Assembly (NCBI GenBank): GCA_963798465.1
Contig: CAWCTC010000001.1
Location: 196,315 to 260,314 of the forward strand
Direction of reading: 5' to 3'
Length of the DNA stretch: 64,000 nucleotides
Source of the DNA: an uncultured bacterium
Lineage (GTDB): Bacteria > Patescibacteriota > Minisyncoccia > Phycocordibacterales > GWA1-40-21
Below, in pieces: positions 1,740 to 59,623 of this stretch. The notes below the pieces were generated by a model, which searched no databases, was not told the origin of the DNA, and worked only from the letters and a program-made list of their open reading frames with translations. Made by a program: the position numbers and the translations under genes. Position 1 is the first letter of the stretch. Each line of letters begins with the position of its first letter.

Positions 1740-2528
1740 ATGAAATATCTTGGAATAGATTATGGAGAAAAAAGGGTCGGAATAGCGATTTCCGATGAAG
1801 AAGGAAGAGTTGCTTTTCCGAAAACTGTTTTGGAAAATAATCCTAATCTCAAATCTCACATTTTGGATTTGTGCAAAGAGCACAATGTAGAAGCTATTGT
1901 CATCGGCGAATCGAAAAATTATAAAGGTGAGGACAATAAAATAAATCCGGAGATAATTTTTTTCAAAAGGGAATTGGGCGCTGAGCTGAAAATGCCGATT
2001 TCTCTAGAACCGGAATTCATGACTTCCATGCAAGTCGAGAAAAATTTTGGAAAGACAGACATGCTCGATGCTTCTGCAGCTTCAATAATTTTGCAGACTT
2101 TTATGGATAAGGAAAAAAATAGGAAAGAAAAAATTCAGAAGCAGAAAACTGAGGAAGAAAAGAAAAATGTCATTGCGAGCGACACGAAGCAAACCAATAA
2201 TAAAATCAATTATGATGATTTCAAAAAAATAGAAATGAAAATCGGAAAGATACTTTCTGCGGAACCTGTTGACGGCTCGGACAAGCTTTACAAACTTTCT
2301 GTCGATTTTGCCGAAGGCGAACCAAGGCAGATTATTTCCGGAATTGCCAAGTTTTTTCCAGATTCAAAAATCCTTGTTGGAAAAAAAGTCGCGTTCGTGA
2401 CGAATCTTGAACCAAAACCTCTCATGGGAATGCAAAGCAATGGAATGATACTCGCCGTCAAATCCGAAGAAAACCTTGCACTTTTGGAAGTTCCTGATTT
2501 CATAAAAGAAGGATCGGCTTTGAGTTAA
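1740..2528 (+). CDS. ruvX: RuvX/YqgF-type putative pre-16S rRNA nuclease fused to a C-terminal tRNA-binding (CsaA/Trbp111/MetRS-C-like) domain
   Basis: The N-terminus (MKYLGIDYGEKRVGIAISD...DASAASIILQTFMD) is the YqgF pattern. The C-terminus (KIEMKIGKILSAEPVDGSDKLYKLSVDFAEGEPRQIISGIA...NLEPKPLMGMQSNGMILA) is the tRNA_bind pattern. Confidence 0.75.
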   Translation: MKYLGIDYGEKRVGIAISDEEGRVAFPKTVLENNPNLKSHILDLCKEHNVEAIVIGESKNYKGEDNKINPEIIFFKRELGAELKMPISLEPEFMTSMQVEKNFGKTDMLDASAASIILQTFMDKEKNRKEKIQKQKTEEEKKNVIASDTKQTNNKINYDDFKKIEMKIGKILSAEPVDGSDKLYKLSVDFAEGEPRQIISGIAKFFPDSKILVGKKVAFVTNLEPKPLMGMQSNGMILAVKSEENLALLEVPDFIKEGSALS

Positions 2529-5560: not shown

Positions 5561-5872
5561 ATGAATAATCCCGCAAAAAAAACATCGACATTCGGAACTA
5601 TAAATTTTTCCGGCAAGCTGGTAAATCCGAAAAGGGATTGGCCTATACTTCTTTTTCTGTCCGTGGTATTCATACTTATTTCAGTCGGTTTTGATGTTTA
5701 TATGTATCTGCAAATTTCAAGCGGCAATATGTATGTGACAATATCGAAAAATGAATTGGTCATAGAAAGTCTCGATTCGTCGACCTTGCAGAATATATTG
5801 AATGATTTTGAAAATAAAAAAGCCAATATTGCCGATTTGAAAATTGATAATTTGGTTGACCCTTCCATATAA
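5561..5872 (+). CDS. hypothetical single-TM protein
   Basis: Listed ORF 5540..5872. ATG 5561 is preferred because GTG 5540 lies inside the inverted-repeat arm. Confidence 0.4.
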   Translation: MNNPAKKTSTFGTINFSGKLVNPKRDWPILLFLSVVFILISVGFDVYMYLQISSGNMYVTISKNELVIESLDSSTLQNILNDFENKKANIADLKIDNLVDPSI

Positions 5873-5910
5873 AACTGTTATATTGTTTTGGCATCTCAAG
5901 AAACATCCAT

Positions 5911-5982
5911 GCCCTTGTAGTTCAATGGATAGAACAGAGCTCTTCTAAGGCTTTGATGTAGGTTCGATTCCTGCCAGGGGCA
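5911..5982 (+). tRNA. tRNA-Arg (anticodon TCT)
   Basis: Manual cloverleaf: acceptor GCCCTTG/CAGGGGC, D arm GTTC..GAAC, anticodon loop CTTCTAA, T arm GTAGG-TTCGATT-CCTGC. No encoded CCA. Confidence 0.85.
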
Positions 5983-6019
5983 CAAAATTAAAAAACGCTG
6001 AAAGGCGTTTTTTAATTTT

Positions 6020-6065
6020 GTGCCCCTGAGGAAGTGCTCAGACGCACTTCCGTGCAGGAATCGAA
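6020..6065 (+). repeat. tRNA-Arg 3'-half mirror module
   Basis: GTGCCCCTG is the reverse complement of the tRNA acceptor 3' strand. It is followed by A + 22-nt hairpin GGAAGTGC-TCAGAC-GCACTTCC + GT. GCAGGAATCGAA is then the reverse complement of the T-loop and T-stem 3' strand. Confidence 0.8.
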
Positions 6066-6145
6066 AAACCTTGAGTATATTTTTGAGCTTTTACTAAAGT
6101 GAAAAAATACGAATGGTTGAAATGCGAATACATGTAGCATTTCAA

Positions 6146-6207
6146 AGACGGAGACTGACGAGTCGAGTCGGGGTCGAGCAAATTTTCAGTAGAAAATTAT
6201 GCGTGAC
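6146..6207 (+). repeat. GC-rich box (AGACGGAG...GTCGAG) plus 25-nt box TTTTCAGTAGAAAATTATGCGTGAC
   Basis: The 25-nt box matches 49192-49216 at 24/25 positions. The GC-rich box resembles 49107-49136, 17604-17640 and the box inside the tRNA-His units. Confidence 0.7.
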
Positions 6208-6373
6208 TACAGCTCCTGTAAGGAGAGATAAGTGTACTCACGGTCCTGCCAAGGGCACACGCATGTGAGACAGACCGAGAGGCTTAAATCCTCGCTTTTT
6301 TGGCGTTGAAAAAAACAACCCCGAAAGGAATCGAACCGAGAAATATTTTAACTATATTTTTCAATGTATCCCG

Positions 6374-7915
6374 CTAGTGAGACCGAGAGGGTTCGATTCC
6401 TATTAAGCGCACAAAATGTTTCTCATTATCTGTAAACTCAGATTTTAGCTTGTAAACTATGCTTAGTTCTGCGGTTTTAAACCCCGGATATGTGTATTCA
6501 ATATTTCTAGGAAAAATCAGCTCTCTTAAAACCCTTAGGTCTTTCACATCTAGGTTTTTCCACTCTTTAGGAAGATGTTTAAGAAAGTCTAAACTAGAGT
6601 CAATGACATTTTCTAATTCAAGTTCTGGAATGAAGATTTCATTAATAGCTTTTTCATGTTCATAAATATCAAATTTTATTTTTTCATTAGCTTCTGTAAA
6701 ATCTTCATCAGATATTTTTCCAGCCAATCTCAAATCAAGCAGTTTTTCTTTTTTATCTTTTCTCTCTAGTATTTTAGATTCAAAACCTGCTTTTGTTGCA
6801 GTTGTAGACTGGAGTTCCTGCTTATGAGCTATCTTAATTGTTTCTTTTAAGACTTCAAATAGATTATCATCAGGAGTTACATCTTTAAGAAGAGAGGTAA
6901 AGTCATTTTCAAAGATTTCCTTATTTATGGAAGTTCTTTTACCACACTCATAGCAATAGCAACTATAATAATGGTAGTATTTACCTCTACCTTTACTTTT
7001 TCCACCACTAATACTTCTACCACAGCCACCACACCTCACCCCTCTCAAAGGATACATGGGATTATCAATGTTCCTTGGAAATTTTTTACTAGCAGATTTA
7101 TTTCTTGCAGATTGAGCTTCAATAAACAACTTCTCACTAATGATTGGTTCATGATTGCCTTTAATAGATATTTCAAATTTGGGAGAAATAATCCATCCAT
7201 AATATACTGGGTTTTTAATTATGTTAGCTACAAGCTGTTTATAGAATTTTATTCCACGGCGACTTTTTAAACCAGTTTTGTTAACTTTTTTTGCCAATTC
7301 TTTAAAAGTATATTTACCTGTAGCATATTCCTCAAAAAGCATTTTAATAATAGGTGCTCTTTCTGGGTGAGGAATTATTATTTTGTTGCCAAGTCTATCT
7401 ATAGTATTTACATAGCCCCAAGGAGCTTTTGAATTGACATAACCTTTAAGAGTTCTGGCTTTCATACCATCAAAAGTTCTTTGTGATTTTACATTATTAT
7501 CAAATTCCGCAAATGAAATAAGCATATTTTCATATAGCTTACCAGCCGGAGTATCTTCAATATTTTCAGTGGCAGAAACTAAAGTAATACCCATTTTGTT
7601 TAAAGAATATTTGAGATATGGATAATCAAACGAAGATCTAGAAAGTCTGTCCACTTTGTAGAAAATAATAATTCCAATTTTATTTTTATTTTTTTCACAG
7701 TATCTCAACATCAATTGGAGTTGAGTTCTGTTTGCAGTTTTAGCACTCTCTCCTTCTTCTCTGAATATCTCTAAAACTTCATATCCATGCTTCAGTGCAT
7801 ATTCTCTACAAGTTTTTTCTTGGCTTCCCAAACTAAAATTTAGGATCTGCTCTTTTGAAGAAACCCTTACGTAAACCAAAGCATTCTTTGGTTTTATTTT
7901 ATTTATATTTTTCAT
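6374..7915 (-). CDS. large serine recombinase (resolvase catalytic domain + recombinase domain + zinc ribbon)
   Basis: ALVYVRVSSKEQ catalytic motif, YKVDRLSRS, Cys-rich CGGCGRSISGG...YYSCYCYECGK, and a C-terminal coiled-coil region. Confidence 0.85.
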   Translation of the reverse strand: MKNINKIKPKNALVYVRVSSKEQILNFSLGSQEKTCREYALKHGYEVLEIFREEGESAKTANRTQLQLMLRYCEKNKNKIGIIIFYKVDRLSRSSFDYPYLKYSLNKMGITLVSATENIEDTPAGKLYENMLISFAEFDNNVKSQRTFDGMKARTLKGYVNSKAPWGYVNTIDRLGNKIIIPHPERAPIIKMLFEEYATGKYTFKELAKKVNKTGLKSRRGIKFYKQLVANIIKNPVYYGWIISPKFEISIKGNHEPIISEKLFIEAQSARNKSASKKFPRNIDNPMYPLRGVRCGGCGRSISGGKSKGRGKYYHYYSCYCYECGKRTSINKEIFENDFTSLLKDVTPDDNLFEVLKETIKIAHKQELQSTTATKAGFESKILERKDKKEKLLDLRLAGKISDEDFTEANEKIKFDIYEHEKAINEIFIPELELENVIDSSLDFLKHLPKEWKNLDVKDLRVLRELIFPRNIEYTYPGFKTAELSIVYKLKSEFTDNEKHFVRLIGIEPSRSH

Positions 7916-7973
7916 AATATTTGTTTTTATAATTAAACCTCCTTTCCTTTAAAAAGAAAAGGAGTTAATCAAG

Positions 7974-8303
7974 TTAATAAATTGCTATCAGTTCTATTCC
8001 GTAATCTTTAATCATCTTTTCTATCCTCTGAAGCTCATCTGGTATTACCGATATTTTGCTCTTATCATTTACGATAAAAGCTCTTATATTTTCTTTATAG
8101 TCATTGCAATACCTTAAAGCTTCTCTCAAATAATATCTGTCACTTACTTTGGTAGCCACGGTATTCTCTCTGAAGATTTTAACTGTACATCCCAATTTCT
8201 TTGCTCTGTTTTTACAGAAGAGTTCCTGTAAAACTGCTTTTCTACATTCACCCTTAACATACGCCCGAGAACTGATAAAAATAACCACGATGTTTTTTTT
8301 CAT
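7974..8303 (-). CDS. small resolvase-catalytic-domain-like protein (degenerate, no DNA-binding domain)
   Basis: 109 aa, with the layout IVVIFISSRAY...LREALRYC...IRAFIVNDKSKIS...GIELIAI, which resembles a serine-recombinase N-terminal domain. It lies directly upstream of the large recombinase. Confidence 0.4.
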   Translation of the reverse strand: MKKNIVVIFISSRAYVKGECRKAVLQELFCKNRAKKLGCTVKIFRENTVATKVSDRYYLREALRYCNDYKENIRAFIVNDKSKISVIPDELQRIEKMIKDYGIELIAIY

Positions 8304-8341
8304 ATTTTTAATTGTTAATTTTGTTTGTAAAGCTTCCCTTT

Positions 8342-8365
8342 ACAGGGAAACAAAGGTTTCCCTGT
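8342..8365. promoter_or_regulatory. 24-bp perfect palindrome ACAGGGAAAC-AAAG-GTTTCCCTGT upstream of the recombinase operon
   Basis: Read directly. It lies ~40 nt upstream (minus-strand sense) of the 8303 start codon. Confidence 0.4.
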
Positions 8366-9480
8366 TATCTAGTTTGTATCCTTGTCCTTATGTTGTTTTG
8401 CCTTTTCTAGAGGCTCTTTTCTTAGCGAGTCCAACCAAAAAGACACTGAGATTGTATAAATGCTCAGCCTTTTTGTTTATTTCTTCTTCTCCTAAATTCC
8501 TAAAATGCAGAGAAAGTAGCTTTGCTATTTTCTCCAAATTTCCAGTATTATTTAACACTTTATTGAGGAGTTAGTGTTTTTACCATTTTTAGGAATAAAA
8601 AAACTAACTACCAAAATTAAAAGCACATCTCTATTTTAAAAAGAGATTTGCATTTAACTTTAAGAGCTAGTTTTATAACAATATTGTTTCTTTTTAATCT
8701 ATGGTTTGGACGAGGTCCAAAACGCAGTAATTTCTGTAAAAATACAATATTATCATCAGCAACACTTTGAACTTATGGGTTCTCGGATGTACGAAGTCAT
8801 GACACGGCCTGTCATTATTTATCCCCTAGAATTTGGGGTTTATGGCTTATAAATCTTGCAATGAACACTTTTCTGCACACAGAGTAATCCCAACTGAAAG
8901 AAATGTCAAATAAATTTAGCAATCAATCTGTGTTTAAACTGTGGAAAGAAAAATGGTCAATTTTCGTATGTAATTATTTGCGAAACTAGTTGAAAAACTA
9001 ACTAAAATTAATATTTGATATTTCAAATACACATACTGTAGCTGAATGTTTTCTAGAAATGATACAAAATATTTTTCAACTAGTTTAGCAAACATTTCTT
9101 TACCATTTATAAAGTAATTTATTTACAATTTTTACCCACTAAAAGACTAAAAAGCATCCCTTTTATTGAGACGTATATTTCAAAAATACCCTTGCATTAA
9201 AAATTCTATTTTCAATTAAATACAATTAAACAATGTTTTAGTCTTTAATTCAAAATAGTGCACTTGGAACAACATAGTCATTGTGATACTATTTCATTAC
9301 AACTTAATACGAAAGTAGCCTAAACTTGATGTAAATCAAGCATGGTGAAAATGAAGTCCCAGAAAGACATAAAAAACCCATCATATGGGGTTGTCTTTCT
9401 GGGCTATATTGGGAAACCAGTATAAACAGCTTTTGCTGTTAACCATGTGGTGGGCTTTTTGTGTACATAAAATATAAATA

Positions 9481-9942
9481 ATGAATCCAGCAGAAGAAAT
9501 AGTAAAATTTTGGCTTCAAGAAAATGGATATTTTCTTCAGTCTTCAATAAGACTAGCTCATAATAAAGAGATAGATATTTTAGCGGTAAATACTGAGAAG
9601 AAAGAAAAATTACACATTGAAGTTTCAGTATCAGTCAGAATGGCTAATTATGATAGAAATCCAAGTGAATTAGCAGAAGAATTTTATCAAAGGAAATTTA
9701 TAGCAGTTGAGAATGATGTAGCGAAAGCTTTTGGAGAGAAGTATAGTAAAAATCTAGTGGTTGGAAATGTTTCTTTTAAGAATAAAGATATCTTGAAAGA
9801 ATTTATTAAGGAATGTGAGAAAAGAGATATAAAGGTGATAACAATAAAAGAGATTTTAGATGTTATCAGACCAAAACTTTCCACTCACACATATTTGAAT
9901 GCTGTAATTAAAACCATTCAGATAGCAAAGGAGTTTAAGTAA
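9481..9942 (+). CDS. hypothetical protein with YraN/Hjc-like PD-(D/E)xK nuclease-fold signature
   Basis: AEEIVKFWLQENGYFLQSSIRLAHNKEIDILAV...LHIEVSVS resembles the GE..a..L...G..il..N.....EiDiia....vfvEVK pattern, but the Lys is replaced. Confidence 0.35.
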   Translation: MNPAEEIVKFWLQENGYFLQSSIRLAHNKEIDILAVNTEKKEKLHIEVSVSVRMANYDRNPSELAEEFYQRKFIAVENDVAKAFGEKYSKNLVVGNVSFKNKDILKEFIKECEKRDIKVITIKEILDVIRPKLSTHTYLNAVIKTIQIAKEFK

Positions 9943-9967
9943 ATTTTATTAGTTAATAAACAAAAAC

Positions 9968-10258
9968 ATGGAAATAATTGGATTAATAGAAATAATAATA
10001 GGATTGGGAATATATTTTATTCCTACATTTGTAGCATATGATAGAAAAATGAAGAATAAAGAAAGTGTATTGTGGTTGAATTTACTTTTGGGGTGGACAT
10101 TTATTGGTTGGGTTGTAGCATTAATTTGGTCATTGATAAAATCCGAGTCAAATGAATCAAAGATTACTCTTGAAAGTGAACTGAAAAAATGTCCTAAGTG
10201 TGCAGAATTAATAAAAAAAGAGGCTACTAAGTGTAAACATTGTGGATCTGAATTATAA
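9968..10258 (+). CDS. superinfection-immunity-like membrane protein with C-terminal zinc ribbon
   Basis: YFIPTFVAYDRK...LNLLLGWTFIGWVVALIWSL matches the Imm_superinfect pattern. The C-terminus carries CPKC...CKHCG. Confidence 0.55.
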   Translation: MEIIGLIEIIIGLGIYFIPTFVAYDRKMKNKESVLWLNLLLGWTFIGWVVALIWSLIKSESNESKITLESELKKCPKCAELIKKEATKCKHCGSEL

Positions 10259-10271
10259 TTTTTAAAAAAAT

Positions 10272-10541
10272 ATGAAAAAACAAAAATACATATTGGAAAA
10301 ATTATATCAAGATTTTAGAAATGCTCTTGCAGAATGGATTGTTGCAAAAACAAAAGCAAGAATTAAAGATGGATTTTATGATTTAAATGATATATTTAAA
10401 AAAATAGAATGGATTGAGAAGTATGATAAGAAAAACAAAAAGATGTTAGATAAGGTTAATAAAACTGAAGAAAAGTTTTTAAATAAAATAAATCCCAAGT
10501 TTTTTAAAAGCTATCTTCAATATTTAAAGGAGGAATATTAG
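10272..10541 (+). CDS. hypothetical protein
   Basis: Listed 89-aa ORF, Lys/Glu-rich, tightly spaced after the previous gene. Confidence 0.35.
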   Translation: MKKQKYILEKLYQDFRNALAEWIVAKTKARIKDGFYDLNDIFKKIEWIEKYDKKNKKMLDKVNKTEEKFLNKINPKFFKSYLQYLKEEY

Positions 10542-10547
10542 ATTTAG

Positions 10548-10940
10548 TTAATCCTGAAAAAACTTAACTATATTACCTACAAAAAGTGATAGTAGACCAT
10601 AGCCAGCCAAAGTTAACCCATAAAGTGTCTGTGGTGTATTTAAATCAATTCCACCATGTTGAGAAGCACTATTTCCAGCCCAAGCCAAACCACCAAAAAT
10701 TGCACACCATGAAAAAAATATAATCCATCTGCCAGTTTTTTTCTTTTTCTCTCCATGAGAAATAACCACTTTATTGGTATTAATACCCATGATTGCAACT
10801 ATAACTGCAACAATTACACCTCCTATTATTGTGCTTATTAAATTACTCATATTGAGTTGTAGTTTAAACAATATAATCAAAAAGTAAAGTAAGACAAAAT
10901 TTAGCACACGTTTTATTGGGCAGATAAAGTTAATATTCAC
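10548..10940 (-). CDS. hypothetical membrane protein (true start possibly Met-31 at 10850)
   Basis: Listed ORF with three to four hydrophobic helices. Confidence 0.4.
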   Translation of the reverse strand: MNINFICPIKRVLNFVLLYFLIILFKLQLNMSNLISTIIGGVIVAVIVAIMGINTNKVVISHGEKKKKTGRWIIFFSWCAIFGGLAWAGNSASQHGGIDLNTPQTLYGLTLAGYGLLSLFVGNIVKFFQD

Positions 10941-10974
10941 AAAGTTATAATTTTATGGTACAGTATAAAAACTT

Positions 10975-12150
10975 ATGACCATAGAAGAAGAAATAACACC
11001 AAGTGATTTTAGAGAGGTTCCTTACGGCGAAAGTAAGATTTTTTTTGATAAAAAATATGTTTTTCATGAACATTTTCAACATAAGAAAAAAACACGCAGA
11101 TTTCCTTATTGCAAAAATATTCTTGCCTTTATATCTGAAAATCCAGGATTAAATATTTATTTTACTTTGGATGAAAAAATAAAACCATTTAAGAAGATTA
11201 AAGATGGCTATCTTATAAATATTGATTCATATATGACATTTTGTGAGGCTATCCAAAGTAGAACTACTGGAAGAGCCAAGGCTTTTCTAAGTCAAAATCT
11301 TAATTTAAAAGACATCAGTGCGACAAAAAAAGATAAAGAAGAATATATTAAAGCAAACGCTGATGAAAAAATTCTTTTAGAAGCCTGTAAAAATCTTGAT
11401 CCTGAGTCTAAAAAAAATATAACTGATGCTTTAAATCAATTACAACCTGCCAATCAAAATGATGAGACTAAAAGACAAGATATAAAAAGCGAGGAGTTTA
11501 TTTTATTGTTTTCTAAATTTCTTTCCGATAAAGACGTCCAGCTAGCTATTATTCAAAATACTCCTAAAATTCAGATTCAAATTCTTAAAGCACATGTTTC
11601 TTTTCTTAAAGAAAATTTAGATAAGAATGAAACATTTATTCAAAATTGGATTGATGAAGATGATGGAAAGTATAGAAAACAAAGATGTCTTATTTTTGGA
11701 ATAGATTATGTAGATCCAAAACGAGAGGGGAGATTGTCTGGTAAAAAATTTGATGTTCTAGCAGAACAAAACAGAGATAACCACGTAATTATTGAATTAA
11801 AATCTCCGAATGCGGATGTATTTGACATTGAATTAAAACCAAATGCTAATGGTGGAGAAGTTGAAGAATTTAGAATCTCTAAAGAATTAGCTAGAGCTAT
11901 ACCGCAAGTACTTGGATATAAAAAATGGTATGGAGGCGCAACCACTGAAGAAATAAAAGAGCTTGGTCTGAAAGAAAAGAAAAATATATCACGTTGTATT
12001 ATTGTTATTGGACAAACTAAAGAATCAGAAGTTTGGAAAGAAAATCTAAATTGTTTAAGAAGCAGCTTATCTTCAATAGACGTATATACTTACACTGATT
12101 TAATACATAAGTTAGAAAATACAATTAAAAATCTTGAGGAAAATCTATAG
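10975..12150 (+). CDS. Shedu-like (DUF4263-type) PD-(D/E)xK nuclease, putative anti-phage effector
   Basis: The C-terminal half (ETFIQNWI...KFDVLAEQNRDNHVIIELKSPNADVF...AIPQVLGYKKWY...CIIVIGQTKE...IDVYTYTDLIHKLENTI) follows the DUF4263 order of motifs. Confidence 0.55.
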   Translation: MTIEEEITPSDFREVPYGESKIFFDKKYVFHEHFQHKKKTRRFPYCKNILAFISENPGLNIYFTLDEKIKPFKKIKDGYLINIDSYMTFCEAIQSRTTGRAKAFLSQNLNLKDISATKKDKEEYIKANADEKILLEACKNLDPESKKNITDALNQLQPANQNDETKRQDIKSEEFILLFSKFLSDKDVQLAIIQNTPKIQIQILKAHVSFLKENLDKNETFIQNWIDEDDGKYRKQRCLIFGIDYVDPKREGRLSGKKFDVLAEQNRDNHVIIELKSPNADVFDIELKPNANGGEVEEFRISKELARAIPQVLGYKKWYGGATTEEIKELGLKEKKNISRCIIVIGQTKESEVWKENLNCLRSSLSSIDVYTYTDLIHKLENTIKNLEENL

Positions 12151-12159
12151 TTAAAAATT

Positions 12160-13467
12160 ATGATAAATATTTGTAAATCACCACTAGATACAGCATATAA
12201 TCGTTTAGATGAAGCACATAGATCTTGGCACAATGCATTAAGCGGTTATCATAAAATAAATGATTTTCGTGCTGGTATAAATAGTGCGATTCAAGCACTT
12301 AGAAATCTAACTTTTGCAATACAAAAACAAAAAGATAATTTGCCGAACTTTGATAATTGGTATGCAGGCTGGCAATCAAAGATGAAAAATGATCCTATTC
12401 TTAAAGAACTTCACGATGCTAGAAACATTATTGTTAAAGAAGAGGATTTAATTTTATATAGTACTGCCAAAGCAACCACAAAAGGTTGGATGGATTTTGA
12501 AAAGACAGCGTTCACCTTTGATCCTTTACAAGATAGTTACACTGTTGCAAAGGATTTTTATGATACATATGCAAAATATTTACCTATAGCAGAAGATCTT
12601 AAAAAAAGATTAATATTTGAGTTTGAAAGAAAATGGGTTTATGAAAAAATACCAGATTATGAATTGTTAGATGCGATTTCTCATTCATATAATTTTCTCT
12701 ATGAAATACTTAAAGATGCAGAAGAAAAATTTTCTTTGCCCATAAAAGAAAATAATAGTACAGGAGATTATTGTACGAATGAATTAAATGACAAAAATAA
12801 ATTAAAATGTATGATAATTACATCACAAGAACGTTGTTTAAAATTTAGTTTTGAAAACGGAGCTTCCCTTGAAATGAAAACAGAAAAAATTTTATTAAAA
12901 GAAAGTGATTTAGATGTTGCACATAAAAGATATGGTGACAAATGGAAATCAGATGAGACACTAGCTTTACTTGAAGGTCTTTTTGCAGATGAATATCCAT
13001 TTAATCAAATGAAACTGTTTTCTCAAGTTGCTGTTGCTGCTCTAAAAAAAGATAAACATCTTATTCCAGTATCTTTCCTTTTTAAAATAAATGATAAAAG
13101 GCCAATGATTATATCTGGTGAATTTCAAAACCAGGAGCATAAAATAATGGTTATGGATAATATTGCTTCAGAAATTGTAAAAAATAATATTAAGTTTGTA
13201 CTTACAATAGCAGAAATTTGGAGATACGATTATGATGAAAAAAACCCACATTTTTTCCCAACAGGAGAACAAAGTGGTAGAGCTAAAGAAGCAATTGAAA
13301 TTGCCTGTTTATCTACTAATAAAATTAAGTTAATTGCGATACCATTCAAAAAGAATATTTTTGGAAAAATTATTTATTCAAAACCAGAGGTAATAAAAGA
13401 ATCTTCCACTGATAATTACCCACCTTCTATTTTTTCACCTATTATTAATGCATTGAGAAGTAATTGA
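12160..13467 (+). CDS. hypothetical 435-aa protein, likely co-transcribed with the Shedu-like gene
   Basis: Listed ORF, 9-nt gap from the previous stop. I recognise no family. Confidence 0.45.
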   Translation: MINICKSPLDTAYNRLDEAHRSWHNALSGYHKINDFRAGINSAIQALRNLTFAIQKQKDNLPNFDNWYAGWQSKMKNDPILKELHDARNIIVKEEDLILYSTAKATTKGWMDFEKTAFTFDPLQDSYTVAKDFYDTYAKYLPIAEDLKKRLIFEFERKWVYEKIPDYELLDAISHSYNFLYEILKDAEEKFSLPIKENNSTGDYCTNELNDKNKLKCMIITSQERCLKFSFENGASLEMKTEKILLKESDLDVAHKRYGDKWKSDETLALLEGLFADEYPFNQMKLFSQVAVAALKKDKHLIPVSFLFKINDKRPMIISGEFQNQEHKIMVMDNIASEIVKNNIKFVLTIAEIWRYDYDEKNPHFFPTGEQSGRAKEAIEIACLSTNKIKLIAIPFKKNIFGKIIYSKPEVIKESSTDNYPPSIFSPIINALRSN

Positions 13468-13761
13468 TTATTTTTTACCAAACTCATCAGGAGATTTCTT
13501 TTCAAGATACCACATTGAAACTTTTACATCACCACGTTGAATAGCGTCAACAATATTAAACTTGGCTGTCATGTTTGGGTACAATTTTAATTGTTGTTTT
13601 CTAACTGCGAAATCAGGATTATTAACCTGGTATCTATAAAGAGCATCTGTTGAAATGGCAGCTAATAAACAAGCTTCTTTGTCAGTACAGCACATTGCGT
13701 ATGCTTCTTCTAATTTCGCAAGTACCTTTTCAGTTATAGTTGATGTTCTACCAGCTTTCAT
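13468..13761 (-). CDS. phage-type HTH DNA-binding protein (terminase-small-subunit-like)
   Basis: GRTSTITEKVLAKLEEAYAMCCTDKEACLLAAISTDALYRYQVNNPDFA...MWYLEKKSPDEF is a pattern common in small phage HTH/terminase small subunits. Confidence 0.4.
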   Translation of the reverse strand: MKAGRTSTITEKVLAKLEEAYAMCCTDKEACLLAAISTDALYRYQVNNPDFAVRKQQLKLYPNMTAKFNIVDAIQRGDVKVSMWYLEKKSPDEFGKK

Positions 13762-13975
13762 ATTAATTAGATTTTAATATCATTAAGCGATAACTTCTCA
13801 ACATCATTTGTTGAAGAATATGTCCAAATCTGAGGTTTTTCAATATTCTTTATAATCTTAGAAAGGTTACAAAGAAATTCAATCAATGGTTTTGAATCTA
13901 GGCTCGTTAGGGGCACATGCATGTGAGACCTATCGAGAGGCTTAAATGTTGAATTTTTTTAGTTATTGAGAGAGA

Positions 13976-16216
13976 TCATTCAAGACCACTTTGCCTAAGA
14001 GCAATATCTTCATCTGCCCGTTTCTTTTGATATTCAATACTTTTCTCTAAATTAAAAACATATTCTTTGGTAAAATCTTGAAATTCCTTACTTCTATCAA
14101 CAGTATATTTTTCTATATTCTCTTTCTTTTTTGTGAGGGCATCAACGAAACCATATTCACCAGTAACTACACCAGTTTGTGACAAATAGCCAAATAATTG
14201 CGACTTGATATTTTTAAGTTCACCGTCTTTTTTATATGTTTTCATTATTTCTTCAACTATTTCATATAAAAATTCTTCGCCTTCATACTTGCCCAATAAA
14301 GAATAGACTATTTCTAAAGACTTCTTATCTTTTTTCTTGATTAACTTAAATAGTTCTTTCTTGAGAGTAGGGTTAAGCTGAGGGAATATATTTGAAATTA
14401 AATTGCTTGCTTCCCAACGATACAGCCAGTTTTCTTTTTCTGAGCCTAGTTCATACCATTTAAAAACCATAGGTATAACCTCCTTTTCGTGTTTACTTAA
14501 TGATTCTGCCAATTTACGAAAATCATATGGAATAGCATCATATCTATCATCTTCTTTGTATTTGCGATTTTTAAGAGTTTTAATTGCTACTCTTTTTTCA
14601 AAGAAATGTATAACTTTTTCTGGGTAAGAATCAGCAATAAAAGTCAGCATGGATTCAGCATCGTAGTTTATATTAATTGTAATCAGTAAAGATTCTAAGA
14701 TTTTATCTAGTTCAGCAGGAGTAAAATCTTTTAAGATTTGTTCTGACTTAAACCATATATGATTTAGCCATCTATCATTCTTTAATTTACAACTTAGTTC
14801 ATATATTACTTCAATTAAGATTTTCTTTAGTCTACCGTCTTTCCCGTAATTTCTTGTAATAGAGTCAACAATATTTGTTAAACTTATAAAATCTTTAGTT
14901 GCTTTAGCCTTTGAAACCACTAAATTAATTAAATCTATATCAACTTCTTCTACATAACTAAAGAGGAATGAAATACTTGGCAAGTTTTTTCCTGCCCCAA
15001 TCCACTTCTTTAATATTTTTATTAAGTCATTTTTCTTTGGACTTTTCCATAATCCAGCAATAAGATTAACCATGAAGGGCGAAAGTTTTTCTAACTTTAT
15101 AAATTCAAAACCAATTTCAGGTTTCGCCTTGGCTAATTCAAATAGGAATATATTAAAATATTGAAATTCACTATATTTATCTGAAGAATAATGACTTACC
15201 ACTTTAAACACTTTTTTTTTCCACTCTTTAATATTAGACATAGACATTGAGCTAATAAATTCTTTTATCTTTTCCAATCTTTGATTTTTTGCTTTGTCCC
15301 AGTCTAATTCTTTTGAAAACTCGTGGTCGTGCCCTACAAAAATCTTGAACATTCCGTAATCACTTTTGGTGGCGATTTTTGATTCAAGTTCCTCAATCCT
15401 TGGGAGAGATTCCTTCTTAGTCCATCGTAAAAACCAATTTTTTCGTTCCTCAATTGTTTTAACCACAACATTGTCTGCTTTATCGATAATTTCTATGTAA
15501 AAATCAATCACCGTGTTTGTGTCACTAGTAATCATATCAATCATATCCTCACCATAAGAATGGTTGCTGGGTCTTCTCGTTGCTTCTTCAAGTGTTTCTA
15601 TAACTTTCTTTTTCTTTTCAGATGTTTCTATAATGGAATACATTTTTTCCAAGAAAGAGATGGCTTCTTTTCTGATAGATATTAATCTTTCGTTTGCATT
15701 AAGGGGTCCGGAATGAAAAGTCATGGTTTTGTAGTCTTGCATGCTCGTGCCTTCAAAAGATGGTTTTAATATACAACCAATAATCAGTAACAAATCTTCC
15801 AAGTGTTCTTTAATGTCTTCATTTTTAAAACTTTTAATGAATTCTAGTACAACTTCTTGTGGTCTATACCCAATCTGTTTTAAAGCATTAAAATCATATT
15901 TAGATAAATACTCCATAGTTTTTCTTGCTTCAGAAGTAGGGCTACCTTCAAATTTCTCTGTAACTGCAAATAAGAGTTTCAATGTTTCTTTGGTTTTTAA
16001 GTACCTTACTTTCTGAAGAACTTCCATAGCTGTATGTAATACATCATCGTATGCTTTACCGTAAATTACATGTGGGCCAAATTTACCCAACGGCTTAGGT
16101 TTGATTTTCTTTTTAGTATTAACAATAACGCTAACTATCTTTATGGCTTTATCAGGAACTTTATAAGCAAACTTCATTAAGTTATTTAATTTTTCTATTA
16201 GTTGGTCATTTGTCAT
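13976..16216 (-). CDS. hypothetical 746-aa alpha-helical-repeat protein, second gene of a two-gene operon
   Basis: Listed ORF. Its start overlaps the stop of the upstream gene by 4 nt (ATGA). No recognisable catalytic motif. Confidence 0.5.
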   Translation of the reverse strand: MTNDQLIEKLNNLMKFAYKVPDKAIKIVSVIVNTKKKIKPKPLGKFGPHVIYGKAYDDVLHTAMEVLQKVRYLKTKETLKLLFAVTEKFEGSPTSEARKTMEYLSKYDFNALKQIGYRPQEVVLEFIKSFKNEDIKEHLEDLLLIIGCILKPSFEGTSMQDYKTMTFHSGPLNANERLISIRKEAISFLEKMYSIIETSEKKKKVIETLEEATRRPSNHSYGEDMIDMITSDTNTVIDFYIEIIDKADNVVVKTIEERKNWFLRWTKKESLPRIEELESKIATKSDYGMFKIFVGHDHEFSKELDWDKAKNQRLEKIKEFISSMSMSNIKEWKKKVFKVVSHYSSDKYSEFQYFNIFLFELAKAKPEIGFEFIKLEKLSPFMVNLIAGLWKSPKKNDLIKILKKWIGAGKNLPSISFLFSYVEEVDIDLINLVVSKAKATKDFISLTNIVDSITRNYGKDGRLKKILIEVIYELSCKLKNDRWLNHIWFKSEQILKDFTPAELDKILESLLITININYDAESMLTFIADSYPEKVIHFFEKRVAIKTLKNRKYKEDDRYDAIPYDFRKLAESLSKHEKEVIPMVFKWYELGSEKENWLYRWEASNLISNIFPQLNPTLKKELFKLIKKKDKKSLEIVYSLLGKYEGEEFLYEIVEEIMKTYKKDGELKNIKSQLFGYLSQTGVVTGEYGFVDALTKKKENIEKYTVDRSKEFQDFTKEYVFNLEKSIEYQKKRADEDIALRQSGLE

Positions 16217-17100
16217 AATTTTTTCTTTATGTCTTTTAAATATTCTTCAGCAATGTCTTCTAATACTTCTTCTGAATTTTTATTTCTGATTTCTGCTATT
16301 TTTCCTAAAATCACAGCCTTTTGCTTTTCATCTTTTGCCATAGCTGTAATGCTGTTAACTTCTTTTTTTGTAAGCTTAGAAATATATTCTGCAATTTCTG
16401 CTAAGCCTGATTTTTCATCTGAAACTAACAGTATACGACCAACACTTTTAATTAGCCCTCTTTTTAAAGACTCATACAGTAAGGCTGTGAACTCTTTGTT
16501 TTCAATTGAAAGTTTCTCTTTAATTTTATCAATACTTGCCACATCTCCATCCTGAATGGGTGCTAATAAATAAAAAATACCAATGAAGGCATGTATCTTT
16601 TCTTCTATACCATTAACAATGGCATTCCACTCATCAGCCACGAAATTATCATCTCCTAGGGCAATATTGTACCAATCATTTAGATAGTTCGTGTCATCTT
16701 TAATGGATTTATCAGGGTCAAGAACTATTGTTTTGTGCTTTTGATTTTCTTTTATGTCTAAAGTTCTTAAAAACTTTTTATCAATTTCCTGCCAGCAAGC
16801 AATTTTTTTATCATTATCTACAAGTATAAAAACTACTGGTGGGCTAGATTTTGCCCAGTGTTGTAAGTCCGATACTCTGCAAGGGAATGAATACTTCTTA
16901 AGCTTAACTTTACCTTTCGCCTGATAGAGTAAATATTTACTTGTATAAGATTTGTTATCTGCTATGAACTGCAAAAGACCGTCTACTCCGGGGTAATTTC
17001 CATTTATGGGTAAATGCTCTAAATATCTCTTGTTTAGTAAATCGCCTAATATTCCTACTGCCTGCCCATCTATTATTTTCTGCTCAGTTGTTTTTGGCAT
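16213..17100 (-). CDS. DUF4365-like restriction-endonuclease-fold protein
   Basis: The N-terminus (GQAVGILGDLL...YPGVDGLLQF...YLLYQAKGK) resembles the D.GiD...vQvK core of DUF4365/Mrr-like PD-(D/E)xK domains. Confidence 0.45.
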   Translation of the reverse strand: MPKTTEQKIIDGQAVGILGDLLNKRYLEHLPINGNYPGVDGLLQFIADNKSYTSKYLLYQAKGKVKLKKYSFPCRVSDLQHWAKSSPPVVFILVDNDKKIACWQEIDKKFLRTLDIKENQKHKTIVLDPDKSIKDDTNYLNDWYNIALGDDNFVADEWNAIVNGIEEKIHAFIGIFYLLAPIQDGDVASIDKIKEKLSIENKEFTALLYESLKRGLIKSVGRILLVSDEKSGLAEIAEYISKLTKKEVNSITAMAKDEKQKAVILGKIAEIRNKNSEEVLEDIAEEYLKDIKKKL

Positions 17101-17434
17101 TTATCCAGTCATTCTAACATTTATTTTGAAACTCAGAAATCTAAAAATTCAGAATTTATGATGGGGTAATTTTTAACTAACCCGCACCTTTTTGTTATTC
17201 ATCACTACCTTACTCCTCAAGTATTACTCAGTATGCACAATAAATTTGCTTTAAAATAAATTAAAAAAATCCTCTGTAAAATTTCAGGGGATTTTTTATT
17301 GTTTGTTTTACTTCGATTATTTAAAAATTATTTTTTATTTGTTTTTTCCATTTTTTAATGTAATATAACTTTGCAAGGGCGCTTAGCTGTTTTGGCTAAC
17401 ATGCAAGTTTACAAGTTTTGAAAGTTTAATGTTT

Positions 17435-17508: not shown

Positions 17509-17539
17509 CAAATAAAATCTGCGACAGCAGATTTTTTGA

Positions 17540-17584
17540 TGGGCGCTAGCACGCAAATTGCTTTGCGTGCGTAAGGGATTCGAA
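17540..17584 (+). repeat. tRNA-Val 3'-half mirror module
   Basis: TGGGCGCT is the reverse complement of the acceptor 3' strand. It is followed by A + 22-nt hairpin GCACGCAAA-TTGC-TTTGCGTGC + GT. AAGGGATTCGAA is then the reverse complement of the T-loop and T-stem 3' strand. Confidence 0.8.
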
Positions 17585-17702
17585 AGACTTTTCCGTGTCG
17601 AGTGAAACGAGACGGAAAAGTACCCGCGACGGTCGTCGAGAATCCCTGAGTTGTTTAAATAGCAGTTATCTCAAATCTATGCTAAATTATTAAAATAAAT
17701 TT

Positions 17703-18994: not shown

Positions 18995-19678
18995 ATGGTG
19001 AAAAGGGGACCAAAACCAAGAAGTAAAGTAAAAATAAAATGGTCTGCAAATTTTGCTTATGCAATCGGGCTTATTGCAACAGATGGCAATTTATCTCCCG
19101 ACGGCAGACATATATCATTTACTTCAAAAGATATTGAACAAATCAATAATTATCAAAAAGCATTAAAAATTAGTTGCAGTATAGGAAAAAAAAGTAATGG
19201 TTTTGTTAAAGAAAAAAAATATTATGTAGTACAGTTTAGCGATATTTTTTTCTATCAATTTTTAGAATCTATTGGAATAACTCGTGCAAAATCAAAAACT
19301 CTGGGTAAAATAGATGTTCCATCAAAATATTTTTTTGATTTTTTACGAGGCTCATTTGATGGCGATGGTACATTTTATTCATATTGGGATAAAAGATGGA
19401 AATCTAGTTTCATGTTTTATTTGGAATTTATATCAGCGAGTAAAAAACATATCTTATGGATAAGATCTGAGATTGAAAAGAGATTAAAGATTAGAGGACA
19501 TATAACTAATGATGGCAGTAAAAAAACGTTACAATTAAAATATGCCAAAAGAGAATCGCTGGAAATTATTAAAAGAATGTACTACAATCAAACGGTTGTT
19601 TGTTTATCCCGCAAGCGTATTAAAATTATCAAAGTTTTAAAGATTGAACATAATCAGCAAAAGAGGTATGAGTTTTGA
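18995..19678 (+). CDS. free-standing LAGLIDADG-family homing endonuclease
   Basis: Two LAGLIDADG-type motifs: AIGLIATDGNL and FLRGSFDGDGTF. Confidence 0.75.
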   Translation: MVKRGPKPRSKVKIKWSANFAYAIGLIATDGNLSPDGRHISFTSKDIEQINNYQKALKISCSIGKKSNGFVKEKKYYVVQFSDIFFYQFLESIGITRAKSKTLGKIDVPSKYFFDFLRGSFDGDGTFYSYWDKRWKSSFMFYLEFISASKKHILWIRSEIEKRLKIRGHITNDGSKKTLQLKYAKRESLEIIKRMYYNQTVVCLSRKRIKIIKVLKIEHNQQKRYEF

Positions 19679-49062: not shown

Positions 49063-49065
49063 TTG

Positions 49066-49091
49066 AAAACCGCTGGGATACCAGCGGTTTT
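49066..49091 (+). terminator. intrinsic terminator after fusA
   Basis: AAAACCGCTGG-GATA-CCAGCGGTTTT. Confidence 0.75.
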
Positions 49092-49093
49092 CT

Positions 49094-58491: not shown

Positions 58492-58535
58492 TCAAAAGTC
58501 TGTAAAGTCCATAAAGTCAAAAGTAAATACAAATC

Positions 58536-59609: not shown

Positions 59610-59623
59610 TAATAAATAAAATA

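Follow-up and report, generated by a model that had tools for sequence, protein, structure and literature searches.

The segment downstream of tRNA-Arg(TCT) belongs to a large family of modular structured RNAs that is unannotated, has no gene of its own and lies immediately 3' of tRNA and tmRNA genes, in the orientation of those genes. The module layout is found behind tRNAs of at least 14 isotypes and behind tmRNA, in more than 80 genomes (Patescibacteria, Elusimicrobia and a few others). The unit at the Arg locus is a composite, with one module nested within another and two structured-module families represented. The initial annotation of this DNA overlooked both the composite organisation and the large family, which also occurs behind tmRNA and one protein gene. 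We tentatively interpret the module as an RNA co-transcribed as part of the tRNA trailer and turning over by recombination at the tRNA-end repeats, an interpretation in which our confidence is a little short of even.

Organisation of the tRNA-Arg unit

The features of the Arg locus are listed below, numbered from the first nucleotide of the window (the whole 64-kb stretch of DNA that was analysed).

5911-5983, plus strand: tRNA-Arg(TCT), called by ARAGORN; 67.1 bits with the Rfam tRNA model
5963-5984, plus strand: U, the last 22 nt of tRNA-Arg from the T loop, template of the mirror
5985-6019, plus strand: spacer at the palindrome centre, a hairpin resembling an intrinsic terminator, its A- and T-tracts symmetric (inverted-repeat search)
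6020-6028, plus strand: mirror arm L, reverse complement of tRNA positions 66-74 (100% complementary)
6029-6053, plus strand: 25-nt insert, A + hairpin + GT, the hairpin being GGAAGTGC-TCAGAC-GCACTTCC
6054-6065, plus strand: mirror arm R, reverse complement of tRNA positions 54-65, T loop and T-stem 3' strand (100%)
6066-6117, plus strand: type-2 scaffold, 5' part (AAACCTTGAG...hairpin...CGAATGGT), common to relative L131
6117-6207, plus strand: nested type-1 module, matched by the R1 covariance model at 6141-6210 with 58 bits, a match not independent of the model, since this sequence was in the R1 seed
6208-6243, plus strand: type-2 scaffold, 3' part (TACAG-CTCC-TGTA-AGGAG-AGA...GTACTCACGG), from comparison with relatives
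6244-6259, plus strand: D, a direct copy of the tRNA 3' end, positions 60-74 (15/16)
6260-6417, plus strand: degenerate second unit (direct and inverted repeats)

The palindrome consists of two perfect inverted repeats, one of 24 nt (5975-5998 and 6005-6028) that comprises the acceptor 3' strand and the terminator, and one of 12 nt (5963-5974 and 6054-6065) that comprises the T loop and the T-stem 3' strand. Arm L spans the complement of the acceptor 3' strand, the discriminator and position +1. The insert is made up of A6029, a hairpin with 8 bp and a 6-nt loop (6030-6051) and GT (6052-6053). Structured sequence of about 180 nt separates arm R from D, which repeats 5969-5984. The initial annotation had described the arms, an insert placed between the complements of tRNA positions 66 and 65, its parallels at the Val and His loci and the 15/16 direct copy, and all of these coordinates were confirmed.

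The type-2 scaffold was aligned with that of L128/L131 by eye. The nested type-1 module has its own P1 hairpin (6117-6145, TTGAAATGC/GCATTTCAA) followed by a core at 6146-6207 (GACGGAG..CGAGTC GGGGTCGAG..GCGTGAC). The degenerate second unit has a terminator-like hairpin (6277-6301), an inverted T-arm copy lacking the hairpin insert (6319-6337) and a remnant resembling a tRNA 3' end (6390-6417). On the opposite strand, the 3' end of a serine recombinase gene (6374-7915) runs into this remnant; the gene is part of a separate island that is missing in L131.

Three further loci in the window carry related units.

17511-17650, plus strand: tRNA-Val unit, with the architecture seen at Arg (repeat and hairpin pattern search)
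21343-21906, plus strand: tRNA-His unit, with the architecture seen at Arg (188-nt unit x 3.1)
49047-49217, plus strand: related type-1 module downstream of a protein gene (R1 match of 17 bits, E = 0.004)

The Val unit comprises a spacer (17511-17539), arm L (17540-17547), A + hairpin + GT (17548-17572), arm R (17573-17584), a type-2 core (17585-17640) and a decayed D (17641-17650). The His array has type-1 cores at 21419-21512, 21607-21700 and 21795-21888, the third being decayed. At Arg, Val (17540-17584) and His (21377-21423) the insert lies between the complements of positions 66 and 65, and the arms are specific to the tRNA at each locus. The module behind the protein gene has a pre-terminator sequence (49047-49059), a terminator (49065-49092), a contiguous mirror with no hairpin (49094-49106) and a core (49107-49217). 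Near-identity is confined to the tandem His copies, and the type of core differs among Arg, Val and His. The LOOT RNA at 9317-9440 was considered as a possible relative and rejected, its sequence being unrelated and its location being in the neighbouring island.

Constraint on the mirror and the insert

The architecture is confirmed as real, far above chance and under constraint. The hairpin patterns are expected 0.00 times in a shuffled window. Both mirror arms, in order and with at most one mismatch per arm, are present at 34 of the 153 tRNA/tmRNA genes in the fetched loci. The initial annotation had called for a control using other tRNAs, and when tRNA ends were compared with the downstream DNA of another tRNA the mean number of genes with both arms was 0.0. 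The arms lie 25 nt apart in 28 of the 34, 23-26 nt apart in four and 0 nt apart in two. The position and size of the insert are thus kept across dozens of tRNAs, which bears out the earlier argument for constraint rather than chance.

The closest relative (L128/L131) has an identical tRNA-Arg and identical mirror arms. Six distinct hairpins occur between identical Arg arms. Five of these have equal length and could be aligned: they are 100% Watson-Crick, with compensatory changes at 7/8 pairs and no G·U, which supports the proposal that the hairpin is constrained. The hairpin sequence GCAAGCAAACTGCTTTGCTTGC is kept across dozens of genomes. Over 61 loci, 87% of the 21 mirror positions are Watson-Crick complementary to the tRNA. 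The T-loop complement (positions 55-60) fits its own tRNA in 85-97% of cases, whereas the same positions fit the downstream copy D in about 6-50%, depending on position; the mirror follows the tRNA's own 3' end better than it follows D. Mirror mismatches show no RNA-type wobble bias (29 G·U vs 27 A·C), and given that the hairpins also lack G·U, both resemble perfect DNA palindromes. Unlike the core, the mirror and hairpin look as if they are perfect either by copying or through a need for perfect pairing.

An intrinsic (bidirectional) terminator is present at 5985-6019, and a T-run terminator spacer lies between tRNA and module in 27 of 30 distinct loci. The initial annotation allowed that the complementarity might be that of extended bidirectional terminators. 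The long perfect terminator palindromes elsewhere in the window (59619-59663 and 58531-58573) have arms made only of A-tract and GC stem, and none reaches into a gene. The terminator explains the centre of the palindrome, not arms L and R, the 25-nt insert or the body of about 180 nt.

It might nevertheless be supposed that the unit has no dedicated function, being an over-extended bidirectional terminator combined with decaying partial duplications of the tRNA gene, and that hairpin-driven template switching at a recombination hot spot makes the copies perfect and keeps them so. This would agree with the lack of wobble bias in the mirror and with the long perfect bidirectional terminators that are common in the source genome. 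In L131 a tRNA-Val gene lies on the opposite strand where the window carries the Val mirror, and the E. coli tyrT/rtT repeats show that tRNA ends can be duplicated spontaneously. Such an origin does not account for an insert of the same size and position in 28/34 loci, across phyla, for the conservation of GCAAGCAAACTGCTTTGCTTGC, for the retention of the element in very small genomes, or for strong covariation of the core together with conserved non-canonical features. Because of the covariation and the cross-phylum conservation, this explanation is largely refuted, and we consider it highly improbable.

A family of folded modules

A hairpin-pattern scan found at least 119 loci; among the 119 matches listed, the A-hairpin-G context is present in 88, most of them from Patescibacteria and Elusimicrobia. 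The covariance model R1 gave 80 matches at E<=0.01. Among the 67 strongest, 50 lie no more than 500 nt downstream of a co-oriented tRNA or tmRNA, typically at 40-90 nt, and 7 further matches lie at the edge of a locus. Units are 130-280 nt long with no ORF inside, and their cores 60-120 nt.

Known RNA families were considered and rejected. For the unit and its relatives, Rfam 15 gave no match at the gathering threshold (cmscan, whole window and 18 loci), and none for the unit at E<=10 on 5850-6500 and locus L036; cmscan matched only tRNA, tmRNA, LOOT and chance miRNA-like hairpins. No Rfam match was obtained for hammerhead, HDV, twister, pistol or hatchet ribozymes. Inspection showed no hammerhead core, and no consistent boxes across the family that would indicate a hammerhead, an HDV-like ribozyme or a box C/D guide. 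The resemblance to the GGUC...GACC stem of Y RNA is superficial, with no YrlA match. Full-text searches of the literature found no description of the element; the motif paper of Weinberg (2017) mentions tRNA proximity for GOLLD and ROOL only.

The core has a well supported fold. Its 20 pairs are 93.6% paired, compared with 27-39% when the pairing is slid, and 18 of the 20 show compensatory changes; the observed values were reached by 0/500 shuffles. RNAalifold predicts 29 pairs, 19 of them compensatory, and a G·U pair is kept in 22 of 23 sequences. On the plus strand the core helices contain 39 G·U against 4 A·C. Judged by these patterns, the body is a modular RNA folded on the tRNA strand. 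Single-stranded DNA containing G·T pairs could in principle give an equally strand-specific fold. Read on its minus strand, the unit looks like the 3' end of a tRNA interrupted by an insert, but a tRNA-like gene on that strand was rejected for the body because of the plus-strand excess of G·U and its near-invariant G·U pair.

In the nested copy (6117-6207), and in copies that we call variant B, a local P1 hairpin lies directly 5' of P2, from which it follows that P1 belongs to the module. Arm R is the 3' strand of helix P1. In the structural model, the 25-nt insert branches off where acceptor and T stem meet, giving a three-way junction.

Predicted pairing between the unit and the tRNA

The segment folds far better than shuffled sequences (z = -7), which supports the structural constraint proposed in the initial annotation. 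That annotation had further proposed that the segment can close into an acceptor/T-stem helix with D. Such closure is possible, but it is not a conserved feature. The downstream copy in L128/L131 keeps only TCCTGCC, with no acceptor part, and minimum-energy folding of a sequence that contains the tRNA has the mirror paired to the 3' end of that tRNA. Where the mirror is part of the folded sequence, the prediction has the tRNA 3' end bound to it (-82.5 kcal/mol, z = -11.6). For 5911-6262 the lowest-energy fold (-152.9 kcal/mol, z = -12.7) has U paired to the mirror and the acceptor and T-stem 5' strands paired to D. The unit is predicted to form an acceptor-like plus T-stem-like stack, with the T loop base-paired or absent, and neither ARAGORN nor the Rfam tRNA model calls a tRNA on it. 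In these models the mirror-paired state destroys the cloverleaf, and its benefit to the cell is not obvious.

The fold of 5911-6262 shows exactly the pairing expected of an intron-like or strand-swap device, in which the mirror would sequester the first 3' end and the tRNA body would pair with D. The product would be a tRNA with an insertion of about 280 nt in the T loop, to be processed further or to provide an alternative 3' end. The only difference between D and U at the Arg locus converts the U5·G68 wobble to U-A, and D matches well in about 60% of loci. We nevertheless regard this as very unlikely. The closest relative and the Val locus have a truncated or decayed D. Changes in D that keep pairing with the tRNA body number 62 of 207, only slightly above the 45 expected, and transition bias can explain the excess; selection on D for this pairing was accordingly rejected, the test being weak and confounded by that bias. 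Signatures of group I or group II introns are lacking: Intron_gpI and group II models gave no matches at E<=10, and the cores are only 60-120 nt.

Turnover between relatives

The units differ between close relatives. L131 is syntenic and lacks the nested module, the site reading GGT/GTACAG (the slash marks the junction). Its His unit has a different core subtype from that of the window, its tRNA-Leu is followed by a unit that the window lacks at that place, and one of its genes is flanked by two unit copies. Orthologous tRNAs carry different core types, and different tRNAs carry near-identical cores. This shuffling looks more like the behaviour of a mobile or selfish element than that of a housekeeping RNA.

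One possibility is a miniature integrative element without an integrase, inserting in the T loop or at the extreme 3' end of tRNA/tmRNA genes. The element would bring a replacement tRNA 3' end and terminator, making U element-borne and D the displaced host end. The U-terminator-mirror palindrome could act as a folded single-strand attachment site for a recombinase supplied in trans, imitating the duplex end of a tRNA gene as integron attC and CTX phage attP sites do, with the bulged hairpin marking strand or polarity. Candidates for a factor acting in trans are the RuvX-tRNA_bind fusion encoded at 1740-2528 and tyrosine recombinases. As in tRNA-targeting elements, direct repeats of the tRNA 3' end flank the inserted DNA and the tRNA is left intact. 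The junctions are suitably placed, the mirror starting at T54/55 and the type-1 D at about position 57 (GTGACC/GATTCC...); a T-loop sublocation is reportedly the site for one class of integrases that target tRNA genes. D has often decayed next to an intact U, the most decayed copy in tandem arrays lies farthest from the tRNA, and at locus L003 D and its terminator duplicate U and its terminator. The nested module sits at a T-arm-like GGT/T site. The perfect Watson-Crick mirror and hairpin, the presence/absence polymorphism among close relatives and the L131 gene between two unit copies would also fit.

Other observations argue against integration. Units have no integrase inside them and no ORF, no integrase, transposase or reverse transcriptase (RT) is found among the 25 commonest Pfam families (118 ORFs, up to 3 kb downstream), and there is no recurrent neighbour gene: a search for a conserved neighbour protein (integrase, RT, Ro, TnpB etc.) gave only housekeeping genes (706 ORFs clustered, 118 downstream ORFs Pfam-scanned). 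Phage and plasmid collections gave no match, and a phage or plasmid origin was rejected, the His unit having no blastn match. Copies within the genome are not near-identical, with different core types at Arg, Val and His. A double-stranded attachment site would leave 20 covarying core pairs and a conserved G·U unexplained, and it is hard to account for the re-specification of U, mirror and D for more than 14 different tRNAs. We consider such an element unlikely. MITE-like or REP-like elements fit no better: there are not many near-identical copies, and the arms are tRNA-specific.

A related proposal, which we regard as somewhat unlikely, is a new class of gene-less, RNA-structured element that colonises tRNA/tmRNA 3' ends and regenerates the tRNA 3' end, its antisense arm specifying or templating attachment. 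The target would be recognised by base pairing with the tRNA gene end, and the chemistry performed by host enzymes or by RNA. The self-matching antisense arm of this putative element is split by a fixed-size hairpin at the acceptor/T-stem boundary.

A proposed passenger RNA in the tRNA trailer

The interpretation that we tentatively prefer, a co-transcribed passenger RNA, would work as follows. The module would be a hairpin set P1-P2-P3, with the mirror forming the 3' strand of P1 and pairing with whatever adjoins upstream. At the Arg locus the partner strand would be the tRNA's T loop, T-stem 3' strand and acceptor 3' strand, and the terminator hairpin would form the tip of the helix. Where the partner crosses from T stem to acceptor stem, between positions 65 and 66, the mirror would bear the 25-nt insert, with a hairpin of 20-22 nt and free sequence. 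Given this location, the paired state would be a three-way junction resembling in shape the stacked acceptor and T arms of a tRNA, a stub replacing the D and anticodon arms.

Transcripts that end at the terminator would give normal tRNA, and those that read through would yield the module, whose mirror would capture the tRNA 3' end, or the downstream D if present. Since a terminator is present in 27/30 loci and there is no known promoter, the module would be made by read-through only. As a passenger, it would borrow the tRNA promoter and gain tRNA-like paired ends, and thereby probably tRNA-type end processing and stability. The anatomy, the family, the covarying strand-specific fold, the link to tRNA/tmRNA 3' ends and the turnover among relatives are observed; read-through transcription, processing by RNase Z/P and any cellular role are what we infer here. 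Recombination between tRNA-end repeats would allow the module to multiply, be lost and be exchanged.

Ultra-small genomes have little spare DNA, and in many of them a conserved covarying RNA-like element occupies tRNA ends. If the module is a passenger RNA, it represents an abundant unannotated family with a possible effect on the maturation of tRNAs in Patescibacteria and Elusimicrobia; a mobile element would represent a new mode of targeting tRNA genes with no integrase gene. Either interpretation offers a concrete object for experiment, with defined arms, a 25-nt insert and a covariance model.

Comparison with known systems

The 3' ends of tRNA and tmRNA genes are classic landing sites for mobile DNA, and their flanks are usually taken to be plain terminators. 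Integrative elements that target these genes, in the class with a T-loop crossover, resemble the module in their flanking 3'-end direct repeats, intact tRNA, T-loop junction, use of tmRNA genes and tandem arrays. The module differs in its size of 130-280 nt, in having no integrase or cargo, in its inverted copy of the attachment sequence and in its covarying single-strand fold. Integron attC and CTX phage attP sites are long imperfect palindromes that imitate a duplex, with extrahelical features that fix strand and polarity. The likeness visible in the module is the geometry of a palindrome with a bulge. Here there is no integron integrase, and the bulge consists of an entire 22-nt hairpin instead of single bases.

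Retroviruses and LTR retrotransposons have primer-binding sites that share with the module a stretch of about 18-21 nt able to pair with a specific tRNA's 3' end. In contrast, the complement in the module covers the gene trailer and not the added CCA, is interrupted by 25 nt and lies in cis, immediately downstream of the tRNA gene, with no reverse transcriptase nearby. REP/BIME, ERIC, BOX and Correia elements are likewise non-coding, modular and hairpin-rich, with nested insertions and no gene of their own, and they are co-transcribed with their neighbours, as the module would be; unlike the module, they are near-identical within a genome, with no tie to tRNA 3' ends and no gene-matched arms.

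MALAT1 mascRNA, plant tRNA-snoRNA genes and the tRNA-miRNA units of MHV68 couple a non-coding RNA to a tRNA or to a structure resembling one, and such passenger RNAs depend on the tRNA promoter and on RNase P/Z for their ends. These offer an analogy for an RNA joined to a tRNA, with tRNA-type promoter and processing, although they are eukaryotic or viral and none has an antisense tRNA 3' end.

Finally, the E. coli tyrT/tyrV repeats and the rtT (RttR) RNA may be compared. The tyrT repeat is 178 bp x 3.14. There is no kinship in sequence or in Rfam (RtT, RF00391, has no match at E<=10); the E. coli units lack the full 54-74 mirror, the 25-nt hairpin insert and the terminator palindrome, and they belong to one enterobacterial locus, compared with many tRNAs in several phyla for the module. 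Both, however, are same-strand tandem units of about 180 bp behind a tRNA (188 nt x 3.1 at His), each ending in a copy of the tRNA 3' end, and the E. coli unit holds GGGGAAGGAT, the complement of the tRNA-end sequence ATCCTTCCCC. The rtT small RNA is freed from a tRNA co-transcript, a likeness that would extend to the module if it is co-transcribed as proposed. For annotation, tRNA-like fragments and 'terminators' behind tRNAs in these phyla should be seen as parts of a larger unit.

Units behind tRNA genes in the window

ARAGORN and a repeat finder bear out the initial annotation, in which the region behind tRNA-Arg was described as an antisense copy of the tRNA 3' end (the mirror) closed by a direct copy of the same end.

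Features of the units in the window
5911-5983: tRNA-Arg(TCT) (ARAGORN)
5975-5998 / 6005-6028: perfect 24-nt inverted repeat; acceptor 3' strand, trailer and terminator stem (repeat finder)
5963-5974 / 6054-6065: perfect 12-nt inverted repeat; T loop and T-stem 3' strand (repeat finder)
6029-6053: 25-nt insert separating the Arg mirror arms; A6029, hairpin 6030-6051, GT 6052-6053
5969-5984 / 6244-6259: direct repeat, 15/16 (repeat finder)
17540-17584: same layout behind tRNA-Val
21377-21423: same layout behind tRNA-His
49047-49217, plus strand: type-1 module behind a protein gene, not a tRNA; contiguous mirror of 13 nt before the terminator, no hairpin insert

The mirror has two arms, L (complement of tRNA positions 66-74) and R (54-65). 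Since A6029, the hairpin and GT fill the space between them, the insert separates the complement of position 66 from that of position 65, and the coordinates confirm the same placement at Val and His. The His unit is 188 nt long and present in 3.1 tandem copies, and tRNA-Leu and tRNA-Tyr of the window lack the layout. The final codons of the protein gene preceding the module at 49047-49217, GAGGGGCACA, resemble the tRNA-Arg 3' end.

The hairpin insert

Metagenomes were scanned for the Arg arms (TGCCCCTGA...GTGCAGGAATCG) separated by any filler of 18-28 nt. Seven loci are genuine (L122, L123, L126-L129 and L131, the last a syntenic close relative of the window); four further matches are due to chance. 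Six different fillers lie between identical arms: GGAAGTGCTCAGACGCACTTCC, GTAAGCAGGAGTACCTGCTTAC, GAAACTGCTATGTAGCAGTTTC, GGGCGTGACCCAGGTCACGCCC, GCAAGCAAATGATTTTGCTTGC and GAATGCGTGGGGACGCATTC. Five of them have the same length; aligned, their 8 pairs give 40 cells, every one of which is Watson-Crick, with compensatory changes in 7 of the 8. None of 500 shuffles equals this pairing and covariation, and in controls with the pairing slid 28-48% of cells pair. Of the 22 hairpin positions, 12 differ between the window and L131, while their tRNA-Arg is identical and the flanks are about 90% identical. By these comparisons, the hairpin is a structural element whose size is fixed but whose sequence is free, and this sequence evolves fast.

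Distribution and controls

A scan for the Val/His hairpin GCNNGCAAANTGCTTTGCNNGC, taking one genome per species, found at least 119 loci. Of the 119 matches listed, 88 have A just before the hairpin and G just after it, and at most of these the flanking 9 and 12 nt are the reverse complement of a tRNA 3' end, the matching tRNA being found 45-78 nt upstream in the same orientation. The tRNAs that carry the unit include Arg, Val, His, Tyr, Leu, Ser, Lys, Ile, Pro, Trp, Glu, Gly, Ala and Asn, and tmRNA genes precede it at two loci. The hosts are chiefly Patescibacteria (Paceibacteria/Parcubacteria groups, Saccharibacteria) and Elusimicrobia; a few carrier MAGs are labelled Betaproteobacteria, Burkholderiales or Leptospira, and may be genuine or mis-binned. 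Rfam 15 contains no family matching any unit examined, even at E<=10, and full-text literature searches found no description of the module.

A covariance model of the type-1 core, R1, gave 80 matches at E<=0.01 in 100 loci. Among the best 67 of these 80, 50 have a co-oriented tRNA or tmRNA in the 500 nt upstream of them, mostly at 40-90 nt, and a further 7 are at a locus edge. The tRNA-to-module spacer looks like a good terminator in 27 of 30 distinct cases; the L122 spacer has no terminator.

The expected number of hairpin patterns in shuffles of the window is 0.00. ARAGORN was run on all fetched loci, giving 153 tRNA/tmRNA genes with sufficient downstream DNA, and both arms (in the correct order, with at most one mismatch each) were found behind 34 of them; when a tRNA end was paired with the downstream region of another tRNA, the mean number with both arms was 0.0. 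The arms are 25 nt apart in 28 of the 34; four others have spacings of 23-26 nt, and the last two of 0 nt. The earlier proposal of constraint rather than chance thus holds. Other perfect 20-21-nt bidirectional terminator palindromes are present in the window, consisting of A-tract and GC stem only, and none extends into a gene. On the census, the control pairings and this terminator comparison, therefore, the complementarity is not that of extended terminators and the insert position is conserved, contrary to the two outcomes that the initial annotation named as fatal to its proposal. The mirror architecture is neither chance nor merely a long terminator.

Core types and folding

Two main core types recur between the mirror and the direct copy. 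Type 1 consists, in order, of arm R, A, RGYC-GGAG-NN-AUGU, a hairpin, YGAG-RC, GG, GGUCGNGA, a long hairpin and NYGUGACC. RNAalifold predicts 29 pairs from 23 units, 19 of them with compensatory changes, and one G·U is retained in 22 of the 23 sequences. The window's Arg and His units are among 21 type-1 cores that were aligned; in that alignment the share of paired cells is 93.6%, compared to 27-39% when slid, with covariation in 18 of 20 pairs, matched by none of 500 shuffles. The helices contain 353 Watson-Crick, 39 G·U and 4 A·C cells, and the ratio of G·U to A·C fixes the strand of the fold as the tRNA strand. Type 2 combines a long CUUUUCC...GGAAAAG hairpin with a GUAC element and a small hairpin whose loop is YGUAR; the Val unit is of this type, and so is the outer scaffold in the Arg unit. 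The approximately 180 nt from mirror to direct copy are thus modular, and folded on the tRNA strand.

G·U pairs are tolerated, even conserved, in the core; the mirror and hairpin are essentially pure Watson-Crick, the mirror having 27 A·C and 29 G·U mismatches. We infer that either a process at the DNA level or the need for a perfect duplex keeps the arms perfect; a candidate process is templated correction inside the long palindrome, for which the selected tRNA would serve as template. The core, unlike the arms, would be selected as a folded single strand, and there is room for a role as single-stranded DNA.

Pairing partner of the mirror

Across 61 loci, 87% of positions in the 21-nt mirror form Watson-Crick pairs with the tRNA, the values for T-loop positions 55-60 being 85-97%. 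Against the downstream direct copy, D, positions 54-56 pair in only 6-20% of cases and 57-60 in 41-49%, the T loop rarely being part of D. Only about 60% of loci have a D with at most 4 mismatches in 14, and the D behind tRNA-Arg in L131 keeps only TCCTGCC. In the predicted folds of 5911-6070 and 5911-6262, the mirror and the 3' end of the tRNA itself form a 36-bp helix from which the hairpin branches off; in the longer fold the acceptor and T-stem 5' strands of the tRNA pair with D. The acceptor/T-stem helix that was originally suggested to close the segment does form when the unit is folded alone, but it is neither a conserved pairing nor energetically preferred.

The Arg unit contains a further module. 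L131 reads CGAAAGGT followed directly by GTACAGCTCCTGTAAGGAG where the window has about 90 extra nt (6117-6207), comprising a local hairpin (TTGAAATGC/GCATTTCAA) and then a complete type-1 core (58 bits with R1, whose seed included this sequence). One module is therefore nested within another, which makes the Arg unit a composite. P1, the first of the module's helices, is in the nested module the local hairpin directly 5' of P2. In 'variant B' units, which begin immediately behind the tRNA, P1 is made from the tRNA's last bases and the trailer, with the conserved hairpin at its tip. Homology makes arm R the 3' strand of P1, with its natural partner upstream.

Turnover and possible origin

Core types differ at orthologous tRNAs (the core behind tRNA-Val is type 2 in the window but type 1 in the relative L089), and almost the same core, judged by eye, is found behind different tRNAs with different arms (window His and tRNA-Arg(GCG) of locus L054). 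tRNA-Leu(GAG) is followed by a unit in L131 but not in the window, and the His core of L131 is of a different subtype. At 3636-5000 of L131 (reverse strand), the unit behind tRNA-His is followed by a segment of about 850 nt with an ORF and then by a second, near-identical unit, the flank GCGTTAGTTTT included, so that the gene is bracketed by two units. In arrays, the distal copies show more decay. D starts in the T loop (for example, at GATTCC after GTGACC). Core exchange, presence or absence, the bracketed gene, decay of distal copies and the T-loop start fit recombination at repeated tRNA-end sequences. They also keep alive the idea of a gene-less integrative element, which we consider rather unlikely. 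The neighbouring genes are housekeeping genes with no recurrent family, no recombinase, reverse transcriptase or transposase is among the 25 commonest Pfam families of 118 downstream ORFs, and a comparison of the His unit with phage and plasmid collections gave no match. The module is real, conserved and structurally constrained. We give little weight to a strand-swap or intron-like device and to non-functional decay. The reading that we tentatively favour is a co-transcribed tRNA-trailer RNA module, with P1 built on the tRNA 3' end and turnover by recombination at tRNA-end repeats.

The closest architectural precedent known to us is E. coli tyrT/tyrV, where tandem units of about 178 bp each close with the tRNA-Tyr 3' end and yield rtT/RttR RNA. 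In MG1655 (L120, 1286650-1287340), the 178-bp rtT repeats that follow tyrV all include GGGGAAGGAT, which matches in antisense the copy of the tRNA-Tyr 3' end, ATCCTTCCCC, at the close of the repeat, and thus a short mirror in the classical locus. There is no sequence or model relationship, and E. coli lacks the full mirror and the hairpin insert. Integrative elements that target tRNA genes, passenger RNAs that mature through tRNA enzymes, folded attC/CTX sites and the primer-binding sites of retroviruses offer partial analogies.

Neighbouring features

What is probably an integrated defence island lies between tRNA-Arg and tRNA-Val; its GC content falls to 0.28-0.30 and it is missing in L131.

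Other features of the window
6374-17100: probable defence island
6374-7915, minus strand: large serine recombinase, its last codons overlapping a tRNA-3'-end-like remnant (6390-6417)
9317-9440, plus strand: LOOT RNA (Rfam RF03000, 75.7 bits), within the island; sequence unrelated to the tRNA-trailer modules
9968-10258: superinfection-immunity protein (island)
10975-12150: Shedu SduA_C protein (island)
16213-17100: DUF4365 protein (island)
17377-17389: partial copy of the tRNA-Val 5' end, GGGCGCTTAGCTG, about 45 nt upstream of the gene
18995-19678, plus strand: LAGLIDADG-like ORF (weak Pfam match), ending just before tRNA-Leu(GAG)
21977-22630, plus strand: nucleotidyltransferase (NTP_transf_2/Polbeta) gene directly behind the tRNA-His unit array
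50505-50939: 144-nt tandem repeat, 3 copies, 67% identity, probably encoding a repeated protein domain

The partial copy GGGCGCTTAGCTG is also present in L089 (about 648-660), and in L131 the entire tRNA-Val gene is on the opposite strand. At 1740-2528 (plus strand), a RuvX/YqgF nuclease domain is fused to a tRNA-binding (tRNA_bind) domain, an unusual combination; this protein could work on tRNA-shaped junctions.
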